Source: Escherichia phage BF17 | Sequence record: MW822008.1 | Reading direction: 5' to 3' (one strand) | DNA length: 64,000 bases | Part shown: positions 35,302 through 52,180 of the stretch, one piece after another | How positions within the stretch are numbered: the stretch's first letter is position 1 | How the letters are laid out: each line of letters starts with the position of its first letter | The notes under the pieces: generated by a model | Told to the model about the DNA's origin: nothing | Databases searched by the model: none | Seen by the model: the letters and a program-made list of their open reading frames with translations, nothing else | Made by a program: the position numbers and the translations under genes

Positions 35302-35330
35302 TGGGACAAAGACGTTTTTGGTGCTATAAT
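35302..35330 (+). promoter_or_regulatory. Sigma70-type early promoter for the gp55-like gene
   Basis: TGGGAC, 17-bp spacer, TGcTATAAT; shares the TTTGGTGCTATAAT core with the promoter at 40008-40037. Confidence 0.5.
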
Positions 35331-39414: not shown

Positions 39415-39440
39415 AAGGGAGCCTTAGCTCCCTTTTTTTA
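39415..39440. terminator. Bidirectional intrinsic terminator
   Basis: aaagg-GGGAGC-ctta-GCTCCC-tttttttat where gp46 (+) and the endo VII-like gene (-) converge. Confidence 0.7.
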
Positions 39441-39915
39441 TATCTACCATATTTAATTTGCCTTCCTTGATAAGCTTTCTGGCTTGCTTAACACGAGCAG
39501 CATTGTTTGCACCAGGGATAACACCTAACTCTTCCAGTATTGCATTCTGTTGTCCTGCTGGGAGCCTTTTAAACTTATTCGTATCGATTGTTAGTGCAGT
39601 GTGATGTATAACTTGCTCATCTTCAGGAATGCTGTTATTACGCTCCAGATAATCCGCAAGATTTCGTAGTACCTCGTATAAGGGTTTATCGGTTAAGTGC
39701 TTCATATAGCGATTAAAGCTGTTCTGTACTTTACCTTCCCATGCGTTCACTTCGTTCTGGAGAACTTCACGACAGTGTTGATTCTCGAAGTGATAGTGAT
39801 CAAGTACTGGCTTAGTTATTGGTTCCTTAATTATAGGATCAATTCCTTTTTGCTTCTTTAGTAATTCATTTCGATAGTTTGCAGCTTCTTTACTATCTTT
39901 TAATCTTTTCTTCAT
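39424..39915 (-). CDS. Endonuclease VII-like protein (T4 gp49 homolog) lacking the zinc-binding cysteines
   Basis: Blocks LDHYHFE, NEVNAWEGKVQNSFNRY, YEVLRNLADYLE and KFKRLP parallel T4 endo VII (LDHDHE, CNLCNAAEGQMKHKFNRSGL, DYLEWLENLLTYL, EFSRLGK) from memory; the CxxC pairs are absent. Confidence 0.55.
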   Translation of the reverse strand: MKKRLKDSKEAANYRNELLKKQKGIDPIIKEPITKPVLDHYHFENQHCREVLQNEVNAWEGKVQNSFNRYMKHLTDKPLYEVLRNLADYLERNNSIPEDEQVIHHTALTIDTNKFKRLPAGQQNAILEELGVIPGANNAARVKQARKLIKEGKLNMVDIKKGS

Positions 39916-40007
39916 AAATCCCCACTAAACTAATTCTTATCAAAATATTTATGCGTTACTTCAATGTTCAAGAATTATGTACTTTTTATAAATTTTTTAT
40001 CATAATA

Positions 40008-40037
40008 GTGAGACACTTTTGAATTTGGTGCTATAAT
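40008..40037 (+). promoter_or_regulatory. Sigma70-type promoter with extended -10, no ORF downstream
   Basis: TGAGAC, 18-bp spacer, TGcTATAAT (-10 at 40032-40037); same core as the gp55 promoter. Confidence 0.5.
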
Positions 40038-40043
40038 GTTAAT

Positions 40044-40499
40044 TGTAGTGATGACAATCCTGTTGAATGCAGAAATGCATATAAATTAGAACCTGATCCT
40101 ATCGAAAATGTAGATGGCAGATGAGCAGTTCAACAGTGCGATGAGCAGAAGAAACCCGTTAGATGTGGGCATAGTTTGAACCCCTCACGGCGACACGGCT
40201 CAATAAAGAACTCCGATAAGCATACAGAGAGTTCCTCGATAGATGTATAAGGATCGCACCTTACCAGATTTGCTAAGGGAGTTTATTAAGTGATTTAATA
40301 AACAGCCTGAAGTTTGATTGTATAGACTTTCAGGTGAGTGTCAGGATGATTAAGACTGACGACCGTTGCACATGACTGCGATAGAGAGAAACAGAGCAAC
40401 CCGCTTTCGTTCTTAATGAATTTTAAGAAATTCGCAATACAATAAATGCTGAAACCATCAGCGTCAAGAATTAAGAGACTTAATTGTCTCTTTTTTATT
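40044..40499 (+). ncRNA. Candidate non-coding transcript (~450 nt) of unknown class; alternatively an origin-associated primer transcript
   Basis: Bounded by the promoter at 40008-40037 and the terminator at 40473-40499; longest plus-strand ORFs are 12-21 codons with no RBS; contains direct repeat GATGAGCAG (40117, 40140) and local hairpins. Confidence 0.35.
40473..40499 (+). terminator. Intrinsic terminator (plus strand)
   Basis: AAGAGAC-ttaatt-GTCTCTT-TTTTATT. Confidence 0.65.
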
Positions 40500-40501
40500 G
40501 T

Positions 40502-40524
40502 CTTCATTCCCCTGCGGGGGGATG
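40502..40524. other. Stable GC-rich hairpin flanked by direct repeats TGTCTTCA
   Basis: TCATTCCCC-tgc-GGGGGATGA, 9-bp stem with one G-U pair, in an otherwise AT-rich intergenic context; no U-tract on either side. Confidence 0.5.
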
Positions 40525-40715
40525 AAAATGTCTTCAACAAATCCCGTCAAGTATTAAATCTTTTAAAGTTCTTTATAATTAATTATAAGAAATGAATATG
40601 AGTTACGTAGTAACGAATATTCTTCAGCTAACGAATGAAATGAGTTAGATGAGTTCACTATAAAATAATTAATTCCTTTCATAATTCAATTCAATCAATT
40701 CTGTAGTTTAAAACC

Positions 40716-40741
40716 AAAAAAAACCAGCAACAATGTGCTGG
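40716..40741 (-). terminator. Intrinsic terminator of the minus-strand operon 41798-40753
   Basis: Minus strand reads CCAGCA-cattgt-TGCTGG followed by a run of eight T. Confidence 0.7.
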
Positions 40742-40752
40742 CTCCTTGTGAG

Positions 40753-40962
40753 TTAGTGCTTCTCGTTTTGTTTTTTAATTTTCTTATTAAAAGACTTAAC
40801 TAATAAGTCTCTATCAATTAGTGGCATATTAAGTAGTGTTCCGTAATCAACACTTTCCATATAAACAGAACACTCCATTAATGCAGTTTTAATATCTGAC
40901 TTATTCAACTCAAATTCCTTAAGTACTTCTTGTATTTCTTCAGGAGATGAGTGGAGAAGCAT
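40753..40962 (-). CDS. Hypothetical small protein (69 aa)
   Basis: 1-nt overlap with the upstream gene; followed by a terminator. Confidence 0.4.
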   Translation of the reverse strand: MLLHSSPEEIQEVLKEFELNKSDIKTALMECSVYMESVDYGTLLNMPLIDRDLLVKSFNKKIKKQNEKH

Positions 40963-51458: not shown

Positions 51459-51481
51459 ACAACCATAAGGAGTTGACACGG

Positions 51482-51832
51482 ATGTTAACTGTATACATTT
51501 TTAAGAAAGAAGAGTACTTAAAGAGTCAGTACTCAAAAATTGAGATTAACGTTCCATACGGGACTTTAGTTGGTTATGATGAAGCTAGTGAAACTTTGTA
51601 TTATAATGATGATAGACTGGACTATAGTATTGATTCATTTATTGAAGACATACTTAATAGTAACACTGAAGATATGTTGTATGAAGAATACTTAGATAAG
51701 TACAAAGAACGTATGTCAAAGTTACATGCTGATGCTCCAGTACTGAACATTTCAAAAACTCCTTCTGAATTCGAGCCACAAAACCCATTCCAACGCCTAA
51801 TTGATGCTGGGGTAAATTTCCGAATTACTTGA
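51482..51832 (+). CDS. Hypothetical protein (~116 aa)
   Basis: Start ATG 51482 with RBS TAAGGAG; the ORF-track start 51473 is a TTG inside the RBS region. Confidence 0.45.
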   Translation: MLTVYIFKKEEYLKSQYSKIEINVPYGTLVGYDEASETLYYNDDRLDYSIDSFIEDILNSNTEDMLYEEYLDKYKERMSKLHADAPVLNISKTPSEFEPQNPFQRLIDAGVNFRIT

Positions 51833-51871
51833 TTAATAAATATCTTCATATTACTGATGGAGATATTTTCT

Positions 51872-52180
51872 ATGTCACAGATATGTTATGTTATAGTAAA
51901 TGATGCATGGCCTGATTATGTTAAGATAGGATTTACCAGTAAATCTGAAATGACAGAACGTTTAAGGACATATCAAACTGCTACACCTTTTAGAGATTTT
52001 GTGGTATACCATGAAGTACACTTTGAAGATGCACGTTTAGCAGAGAAAGAAATTCACAAAAGACTAAAACAAATGAACGCAGTAAGGCAACCTAACACCG
52101 AGTGGTTCAAGATGCCTAAGAAGATAGCAGCGAACATCGTTGATTCTGTTCTTGACGATATGGAAAACGACTTGCTATAG
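51872..52180 (+). CDS. Small T5orf172 / GIY-YIG-like domain protein (~102 aa)
   Basis: YVIVNDAWPDYVKIGFTSKSEMTERLRTY fits the same motif; start ATG 51872 with RBS GGAG (ORF-track ATG 51857 lies inside that RBS). Confidence 0.5.
   Translation: MSQICYVIVNDAWPDYVKIGFTSKSEMTERLRTYQTATPFRDFVVYHEVHFEDARLAEKEIHKRLKQMNAVRQPNTEWFKMPKKIAANIVDSVLDDMENDLL

Follow-up and report, generated by a model that had tools for sequence, protein, structure and literature searches.

GOLLD and ROOL, together with OLE and raiA, are RNAs of several hundred nucleotides in which many helices are combined with pseudoknots and conserved junctions; they are borne by phages, prophages and mobile elements and have no obligatory adjacent protein gene. 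In GOLLD, ROOL and OLE, kissing contacts hold together multimers made of RNA alone (PMC12286853). The Pseudomonas jumbo phage PA5oct, which is related to 121Q, RaK2 and GAP32, carries putative long noncoding RNAs (lncRNAs; ncRNA001–004) that are free of open reading frames (ORFs) and 236–619 nt long, two of which are plentiful from the early stage of infection onward and make up as much as 5% of phage reads (PMC7318152). Here we analyze a 64,000-nt stretch of Escherichia phage BF17 (MW822008.1; hereafter the window), and specifically an island at 39916–40752 that a preliminary description had read either as a phage noncoding RNA of unknown class or as a replication origin. We conclude that the island is very probably a genuine gene for a structured RNA, ~460–600 nt long and intricately folded, and that it represents a new family; the first of the two readings is strongly supported by covariation, by the conservation of promoters and by the strand specificity of G·U pairs. 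The RNA is like GOLLD, ROOL, OLE and raiA in size, in its helices, pseudoknots and conserved junctions, in its mobile carriers and in the lack of an obligatory adjacent protein gene, and it resembles the PA5oct lncRNAs in being ORF-free, in numbering four per genome and in belonging to the same broad phage clade. The reading that we favor, a structured RNA cassette of a new family whose product acts in trans, has in our estimate a probability of about 0.55.

Conservation and covariation of the island RNA

The source phage is an Asteriusvirus, a RaK2-like jumbo coliphage with relatives 121Q and PBECO4, and the island sequence is 100% identical by blastn in phages EC.P1, vB_Ec-M-J and WPEC3. The central ~490 nt found blastn matches in 70–71 of 50,697 phage records, at 65–100% identity and at 2–5 places per genome. 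All of these were RaK2-like jumbo phages, of Escherichia, Salmonella, Klebsiella, Erwinia, Serratia, Yersinia, Cronobacter, Pectobacterium and 'Xanthomonas'; sequenced phages outside the jumbo group yielded no copy. In phage TH47, whose core is 100% identical to that of the window, a single strand bears all four copies (49.4, 146.0, 261.9 and 345.5 kb). These show 72–80% mutual identity, and their alignment displays conserved blocks, hairpin-shaped insertions and compensatory changes. The window contains one of four such dispersed paralogs of the Asteriusvirus genome.

An exact degenerate pattern taken from the most conserved block (GACCGTTNC...GAAACNGNGNAACCCGC) matched 32 IMG/VR, 64 metagenome and 11 bacterial genome stretches, the identifiable IMG/VR contigs being jumbo-phage genomes of 345–378 kb, and nhmmer confirmed 92 full-length members among IMG/VR, metagenome and bacterial genome contigs. 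Nine of the bacterial matches are real: Citrobacter, Serratia (two), Silvania, Enterobacter, Buttiauxella, two Enterobacteriaceae and a short contig of a metagenome-assembled genome labelled Clostridium. Complete Escherichia coli genomes hold a copy in 2 of 5426 cases, on a ~10-kb island adjoining ffs that PGAP leaves unannotated at the element, and the plasmid sequences searched gave no match. Copy number is 1 in islands, 2 in RaK2 and K64-1 and 4–5 in other 350-kb jumbo phages. The element is, in sum, a multi-copy family common to jumbo phages and bacterial islands.

Conservation and covariation within this family lie far beyond chance. In a structural alignment of 56 members (<97% mutual identity), RNAalifold predicted 64 pairs, 45 with compensatory changes, and mutual information after average product correction (APC) recovered these pairs and added long-range ones. 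In the final model, 82 pairs form 17 helices, of which four cross others as pseudoknots, and pairing is canonical in 94.9% of the 4439 pair cells. Compensatory changes among aligned relatives, which the preliminary description had proposed to seek, were found in abundance, with both sides altered in 63 of the 82 pairs. The covariation score is 0.544, as against 0.187 in shuffles (0 of 500 reach the observed value) and ~0.08 when the partners are slid by 1–3 columns.

With respect to strand, G·U cells outnumber A·C cells by 363 to 52, and the plus strand is therefore the one that folds; the promoter and the terminator hairpin both lie on this same strand. Folding energy departs modestly from expectation and by itself is no guide to the strand (z = −2.7 versus −2.4). 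A minus-strand RNA is rejected by the G·U and A·C counts as well as by the promoters. The minus-strand promoter-like sites at 40344–40317 and 40467–40439 have either hexamers on covarying or invariant RNA positions or variable spacing, and are not kept as promoters. The idea of a guide RNA was likewise set aside: by eye, alignments of near-identical strains contain no hypervariable single-stranded block, and among the differences seen there is a compensatory one, in pseudoknot a.

The core and the parts of its fold have the following positions in the window, with the plus strand marked (+):

40089–40551 (+): conserved core; nhmmer E = 5e-125 against the family profile, conservation per 10 nt 0.7–0.99
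40098–40103 / 40113–40117 (+): helix H1
40125–40127 / 40137–40139 (+): helix H2
40142–40146 / 40198–40202 (+): helix H3
40155–40158 / 40187–40190 (+): inner helix CCGU/ACGG
40208–40212 / 40230–40234 (+): helix H5
40281–40284 / 40299–40302 (+): helix H7
40304–40315 / 40324–40335 (+): helix H8
40339–40343 / 40357–40361 (+): helix H10
40377–40381 / 40432–40436 (+): helix H12
40384–40388 / 40404–40408 (+): helix H13
40411–40414 / 40425–40428 (+): helix H14
40193–40195 / 40244–40246 (+): pseudoknot a, ACA with UGU, crossing H3; pair types GC:40, AU:14; UA:51, GU:3, CG:2
40219–40221 / 40272–40274 (+): pseudoknot b, AGC of the H5 loop with GCU directly before the invariant UAAGGGAG; double changes in 2 of 3 pairs, 88.7% of cells paired
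40317–40323 / 40437–40443 (+): pseudoknot c, AUUGUAU of the H8 apical loop with AUACAAU; 7 of 7 pairs compensatory, 99.5% of cells paired
40365–40369 / 40396–40400 (+): pseudoknot d, GUUGC with GCAAC of the H13 loop; 100% paired, one position changing from G-C to A-U in 3 sequences

This core reaches beyond the terminator, and the ~440 nt from promoter to terminator that had been proposed as the extent of the RNA are thus too short. Nowhere is the family more conserved than in the block around pseudoknot d (GACCGUUGC ... GAAACAGAGCAACCCGC). Approximately 80 nucleotides are invariant, chiefly in junctions and loops (GAUGAG, AAACCCG, CGGCAAUGCGGC, AUAAAG, GAUAGA, UAAGGGAG, GACCGUUGC, GAAACAGRGCAACCCGC and CGUCAR), which is a pattern known from RNAs whose action depends on a precise three-dimensional fold. 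Between the window and phage G17, Asteriusvirus strains ~97% identical in the core, pseudoknot a has undergone a recent compensatory double change from CA/UG to UG/CA.

A portion of the fold is modular. A peripheral module (…UACAAUAUAGAUCCGUCC…) is inserted in H7 or in H14 depending on the member, and the insertions are hairpin-shaped and lie within helices. In a comparison of TH47 copies B (L004 48014–48541), C (L008 ~51468–52038) and D (L002 49361–49893), this ~35-nt module (…UAUACAAUAUAGAUCCGUCCAAAAUU…) was traced to H7 in some members, to H14 in others and to both in copy C, and it occupies neither in the copy of the window; the places concerned are columns 319–460 and 582–620 of the alignment. 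Its behavior suggests a portable peripheral domain. Variable peripheral domains are typical of large folded RNAs.

In terms of coding, the island is indeed, as first described, the longest ORF-free stretch of the window, since the region 556–1578 is filled by a minus-strand tail-fibre ORF that runs off the window start, and no ORF of at least 100 codons covers 39925–40961. ORFs of 20–81 amino acids do exist in the island, and some depositors have annotated hypothetical proteins there, as would be expected if it encoded one or more small proteins, or were a decaying pseudogene, with its structure incidental. We regard this as extremely improbable. No ORF examined is conserved, and the 81-residue minus-strand ORF, doubted from the outset, keeps a frame of at least 70 residues over its span in just 10 of 56 members. 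Indels in that span are not multiples of three, its lengths falling 20/18/18 into the three mod-3 classes, and the longest ORF per family member (median 68 residues) is near that of shuffles (54). A 1-nt indel interrupts the sole spot resembling a Shine–Dalgarno sequence and start codon (GGGGGGAUGAAA), and conservation tracks base pairing. The shuffle-like ORF lengths, the rarity of the 81-residue frame and the spread of span lengths over all mod-3 classes mark the island as noncoding.

Many genomes have 2–4 tiny ORFs annotated within the element, some of only 23 codons, with ribosome-binding sites. The hypothetical proteins called inside it in dozens of GenBank records (for example fHe-Yen9-04 g347 and g348, SD-1_S14, JP4 and E9.1) are almost certainly false gene calls, and this annotation is corrected here.

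Promoter, terminators and 3′ module

The elements that surround or interrupt the fold are as follows, with the minus strand marked (−):

40008–40037 (+): sigma-70-type promoter, with a −35-like GTGAGACA at 40008–40015 and an extended −10 TGCTATAAT at 40029–40037
40042–40088 (+): variable 5′ leader with two small hairpins, 40042–40058 (ATTGT..ACAAT) and 40069–40078 (GCA-GAAA-TGC)
40473–40496 (+): intrinsic terminator hairpin inside the conserved unit, AAGAGAC-UUAAUU-GUCUCUU (stem 40473–40492) followed by U6
40504–40551 (+): universal 3′ module, a 9-bp C-rich hairpin UCAUUCCCC-UGC-GGGGGGAUGA (40504–40525) followed by AAAUG..CAACAAAUCCCGUCAAG
40592–40650 (+): accessory downstream module with AUGAAUAUGAG, hairpin GUUAC-GUA-GUAAC at 40602–40614 and hairpin CUAAC-GAAUGAAAUGA-GUUAG at 40628–40648; conservation 0.5–0.67
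40716–40747 (−): intrinsic terminator of the convergent minus-strand operon, at the island boundary and outside the RNA family

The plus-strand promoter proposed in the preliminary description is present, with 10 of 12 consensus matches plus the TG in our scan (GTGAGA/GAGACA-N16-18-TATAAT), and its predicted transcription start is at ~40044. Of 59 distinct family members, 55 have TGnTATAAT ahead of the core, and a −35-like TGrrACA box lies ~17 nt farther upstream. The distance from promoter to core is 36–72 nt in jumbo phages, where a 5′ hairpin leader intervenes, and 7–8 nt in island copies, from which the leader is missing. Leader conservation is low (0.14–0.56); a hairpin at this position is nevertheless kept in the jumbo-phage copies. 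Jumbo-phage leaders also carry a second AAYCCUGA motif (AAUCCUGUUG, 40055–40063) that echoes the start of the core (AACCUGAUCC, 40090–40098) and may have arisen by partial duplication or offer an alternative partner for pairing. The promoter core had been said to be shared with the gp55-gene promoter, and the 14-mer TTTGGTGCTATAAT does occur exactly twice in the window, at 40024–40037 and 35317–35330. The copy at 35317 lies ~1.9 kb upstream of a gp46-like gene (37258), where phage G17 annotates the sigma-factor gene. Sites of the form TGNTATAAT number only 7 in the window.

The hairpin and T-run proposed as a plus-strand terminator are likewise present, as is the terminator of the minus-strand operon (40747–40718), a site that is annotated as a terminator in phage G17. 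As the functional end of the RNA, however, the former does not hold, because the best-conserved 3′ part of the element (40504–40551) comes after it. The terminator hairpin, whose stem covaries (helix 16 of the model), is an optional insert found in ~30 of 68 members, always 24–28 nt before GGGGAU. The region has 6 terminator-like sites where 1.5 are expected. Such a terminator, at a fixed place inside a conserved unit with conserved sequence on both sides, is what would be expected of a leader that controls transcription in cis, in which the nascent RNA would modify its own polymerase (processive antitermination, as with HK022 put) or set the balance of stop and read-through at the internal terminator, and in this way control downstream genes. 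The rarity of terminators farther downstream (3 of 68 members) points the same way. Against this, more than half of the members have no terminator hairpin and keep the rest of the element, and known antiterminator RNAs measure 65–120 nt whereas this one spans at least 460 nt.

The stable GC-rich hairpin noted after the terminator is borne out as TCATTCCCC-TGC-GGGGGGATGA at 40504–40525, flanked by TGTCTTCA at 40499 and 40529. In the family it is followed by a universal GAUGAAA...CAAAYCYCGUCAR. The GGGGG, AAA and C..CA of this 3′ module are invariant in 56 of 56 sequences, and variation in the C-rich hairpin (helix 17) is limited to G·U. The invariant CGUCAR is present twice, ahead of the terminator (40459–40468) and at the 3′ end (40543–40551). 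A search for further long-range helices of the 3′ module returned only one covarying pair (40373–40506) and the possibility that CCGU 40544–40547 replaces CCGU 40155–40158 as the partner of ACGG 40187–40190; this alternative pairing makes a conformational switch conceivable.

In other members the accessory module consists of UGAAUUGAG, one to three hairpins with GAACGNAGUGA loops (three in RaK2) and then AAAAUUCUUUGAC-hairpin-GGCAAAUC, and the stems of its last hairpin covary by eye (CAUUC/GAAUG, CAAUC/GAUUG, CUAAC/GUUAG). It often directly precedes the next start codon, yet it is kept where no co-directional gene follows. Examples are seen at locus L018 ~3365–3200 (minus strand) and locus L033 1715–1900, and the GAACGNAGUGA loop has the loose look of a sarcin-ricin or loop-E motif.

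Gene context and mode of action

In the window, the island is bounded on the left by an endonuclease VII gene (39424–39915, minus strand) and on the right by a 69-residue ORF and then a baseplate-hub gene, from 40753 on the minus strand. Synteny across genera holds for at least three paralog positions:

Context 1, 25 loci: between endonuclease VII and the hub operon (the type of the window, copy A), RNA convergent with its neighbors
Context 2, 12 loci: upstream of an ADP-ribosylglycohydrolase gene
Context 3, ~10 loci including RaK2: near a Dam-like methylase

Orientation to the neighbors differs by context, copy A being convergent on the operon and the other paralogs co-directional. For the cis transcription-control leader introduced above, supporting points are that all four TH47 copies are oriented like most genes, and that the UUGAC-hairpin-GGCAA is directly followed, in several paralog types, by the start of a co-directional gene. 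The two commonest contexts, however, are convergent (the copy A type with 25 loci and islands of the cI type with 14). The RNA there runs head-on into convergent genes, so there is nothing to antiterminate into, and the genes that do lie downstream share no theme (ADP-ribosylglycohydrolase, Dam-like methylase, none). The constant place upstream of a co-directional gene class that a cis-regulatory leader or riboswitch would occupy was not found, as downstream genes vary or converge. We consider control of downstream genes improbable as the function of this RNA, a shade more so than the origin discussed below.

The bacterial carriers are small integrative islands of Enterobacterales with a single copy each, and these most commonly have the order host gene, large serine integrase (+), sometimes a few hypothetical genes, RNA (+), S24/cI-like repressor (−) and Ner-like protein (+), followed by genes for a 286-residue membrane protein and an LprI-like protein, with the RNA convergent on the cI-like gene. 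One island (locus L065, 3733–14625) continues with a resolvase, the Kiwa defence gene kwaB and a 205-residue ORF in the KwaA position; its integrase/RNA/cI/Ner layout is shared by loci L050, L053, L054, L059, L083 and L088. A link of these small islands to jumbo phages, as satellites or as defence islands, is possible. The Serratia copy lies beside a serine recombinase and two ParB-like genes, adjoining host tilS. A perfect palindrome, GGTAATGA-N8-TCATTACC, overlaps the −35 region of the island RNA promoter (L065 8088–8114, and likewise in L050, L053, L059, L083 and L088). As a repressor operator it fails to recur in the cI–ner intergenic region, and it is left uninterpreted, an operator or a terminator of the upstream gene being possible.

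In a neighbor-joining tree of the core, island copies fall into at least three clades interleaved with phage paralogs, and the cassette has therefore moved between phages and islands more than once. These repeated transfers, and the presence of one cassette in both lytic jumbo phages and Kiwa-bearing islands, could reflect a decoy or sponge in a phage-defence conflict, an RNA that would neutralize a host or island nuclease, an RNA-binding regulator or a signalling nucleotide, or whose island copy would interfere with the phage RNA. A strong early-type promoter and multiple gene copies, which would raise dose, fit this role, for which the case is contextual throughout. CsrB-type sponges, though, repeat a binding motif across the RNA, and no such repetition is seen here; nor are diverged paralogs predicted by a simple need for dosage. 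A decoy is rather unlikely on these grounds, and since it would be a special case of action in trans, its share is counted within the reading that we favor.

The origin of the preliminary description would act in cis. Here the promoter-driven RNA would fold like ColE1 RNA II, the GGGGGG at 40516–40521 in its G-rich 3′ part would seed a persistent RNA–DNA hybrid beside the AT-rich flank (40551–40715), and a T4-like replisome would start there; islands would carry the same element so as to be replicated too. Several observations lend such a role indirect support. Copy number climbs with genome size, the copies are dispersed round the genome at syntenic positions, the flanks are AT-rich and a conserved 3′ module lies beyond the terminator. 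The composition had been correctly described as richer in G+C in the middle of the island (core 41%, window 37%, flanks 23–25%). T4 has several R-loop origins and ColE1 RNA II is of similar length, ~550 nt. Furthermore, a lytic phage and small islands that share a noncoding element resemble satellites copying the cis sites of a helper.

Nonetheless, four pseudoknots, invariant loops and junctions and modular insertions exceed the needs of any known primer RNA, and a stable fold opposes R-loop formation. The direct repeat GATGAGCAG, offered as an iteron-like element, does exist in two copies (at 40120, rather than 40117, and at 40140), but as an iteron it adds nothing to the case for an origin. 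Its first copy consists of the invariant junction GAUGAG and a covarying hairpin, whereas the second is not conserved in the family, the pair being restricted to copy A of the Asteriusvirus genus; because only the first is conserved, the pair is not an iteron, and no iteron array is found. No initiator or replication gene is adjacent in the phages or islands examined. The promoter looks constitutive (sigma-70) and would fire continuously in an integrated island. Cumulative GC skew tracks gene orientation with no inflection at the copies and is uninformative as an origin signal. Taken together, these points make an origin improbable.

Action in trans is favored, at odds that we place at even or slightly better, because the RNA's own promoter is the sole constant of its surroundings, neighboring genes lie in varying orientations to it and often converge on it, and transfer of the cassette has taken place between mobile elements that are unrelated. 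From the sequence signals, host sigma-70 RNA polymerase would start at the extended −10 promoter, at ~40044, and the transcript would fold into the compact core, in which four pseudoknots or kissing contacts would hold together 13 or more nested helices. A partial stop at the internal terminator would give an RNA of ~450 nt, and read-through one of ~510–700 nt that adds the C-rich hairpin, the CGUCAAG module and the accessory hairpins. The RNA would presumably be made early in jumbo-phage infection and, once folded, could work in trans: it might scaffold or partner a factor of the phage or the host, be a ribozyme or assemble with itself.

A number of observations weigh against this reading or against parts of its support. 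The transcript and its ends are predicted from the sequence. That the best-conserved 3′ module follows a terminator that looks competent is unexpected if the RNA simply acts in trans. The retention of 4–5 old, diverged paralogs at syntenic positions across genera would suit cis elements, origins among them, and a copy number that rises with genome size is what position-dependent elements would show. No conserved protein-partner gene stands next to the RNA in the phage and island contexts examined. The PA5oct RNAs are not homologous to the new family and are therefore a precedent only. As for the structure itself, pseudoknot d is the weakest of the four, being supported by a single covarying position, and the shuffle control for covariation ignores phylogeny; the slid control preserves it, with an equally clear result.

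A bolder version of trans action would make this a new catalytic or self-assembling RNA class, a large ribozyme or a kissing-loop RNA-only multimer that is essential to RaK2-like jumbo phages and that the small serine-integrase, cI and Ner islands, as satellites or defence elements, would have captured to exploit or jam an RNA-dependent step of the phage; in a variant, it would be the first RNA-structured origin shared by a helper phage and its parasites. This proposal is speculative and on balance unlikely, if less so than the decoy.

Comparison with known RNAs

A covariance search of Rfam, suggested when the island was first described, matched no family, consistent with an unknown class. Against Rfam 15 (4227 models, including GOLLD, ROOL, OLE, raiA, HEARO, RNase P, group I and II introns, 6S, transfer-messenger RNA (tmRNA) and riboswitches), the whole window and six loci with other members gave 0 gathering-score matches. 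A relaxed search of 39850–40800 (E up to 10) gave chance-level matches only, at ≤26.9 bits and none near a gathering score, the best two (E 0.11–0.17) falling on terminator-like hairpins, and in five further members the relaxed search found no match on the element. ARAGORN detected 0 tRNA or tmRNA genes in the window. The element lies between complete genes, has its own promoter and matches no Rfam intron, which argues against a self-splicing group I or II intron. A hammerhead reading of the CAGAUGAG-hairpin-CGAA was rejected, as hammerhead-essential positions vary (GUUGAG, CGCAG and others) and no Rfam match was obtained. Blocks such as CGACCGUUGCA...ACAGAGCAACCCGC resemble M1 RNA, a likeness that is no more than a lead because none of the RNase P models gave a score, even with E values up to 10 allowed.

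Full-text literature searches found no published description of the element, and the family could be among the more than 10,000 viral RNA motifs catalogued without names in PMC10690425. Published accounts of phages CBB, phAPEC6 and fEgEco12 make no mention of it. The family is presented as a new class, and for its multi-paralog organization, its internal terminator and its sharing between jumbo phages and islands, the literature searched offered no described counterpart.

Among RNAs that act in cis, the HK022 put RNAs and other cis-acting antiterminator RNAs are similar in being structured directly after a promoter and before a terminator. Unlike the put-type RNAs (about 65–120 nt), the element is longer, often faces convergent genes and is often without a terminator. 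ColE1 RNA II and T4 oriF and oriG are likewise promoter-driven noncoding transcripts of ~0.5 kb with a G-rich segment near AT-rich DNA, and the dispersal of element copies recalls the multiple dispersed origins of T4-type phages. T4 origins use MotA-dependent middle promoters and a short unstructured RNA. The promoter here is of the sigma-70 extended −10 type, and DNA of 23% G+C begins ~500 nt downstream, after the 41% G+C core. In contrast to ColE1, the new family has no conserved antisense unit resembling RNA I, its minus-strand promoter-like sites not being conserved. To our knowledge, primer RNAs are without pseudoknots or extensive invariant loops.

The PA5oct lncRNAs (MK797984.1: 8263–8498, 21951–22401, 103065–103668 and 246116–246734) show no similarity to the new family by nhmmer or motif search, nor to one another, and unlike the new family they have no described structure. 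The length of ncRNA003 is 604 nt in the GenBank record and 304 nt in the table of the paper (PMC7318152).

Large RNAs under such tertiary constraint are rare, and nearly all of those whose function has since been established are ribozymes, riboswitches or cores of ribonucleoprotein machines. The carriers of this one are culturable phages of E. coli, Salmonella, Klebsiella and Erwinia under development for therapy. With hosts and phages in culture, its function is genetically testable, whereas GOLLD and ROOL hosts are mostly metagenomic or hard to grow. Ancient paralogs, sharing with islands that bear defence genes and a terminator inside the conserved unit combine to make the family a test case for the roles of large phage RNAs.

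With regard to GOLLD and ROOL themselves, the new family differs in having no match to their Rfam models, in its Enterobacterales hosts, in the lack of an association with tRNA genes and in its 4–5 diverged paralogs per genome and internal terminator. It nonetheless fits the descriptive class of large ornate noncoding RNAs borne by mobile genetic elements, which is not a homology family, in that it exceeds 400 nt, combines covarying helices with pseudoknots, has conserved unpaired nucleotides and is noncoding. By homology the RNA belongs to no known family; in kind it resembles GOLLD and ROOL.

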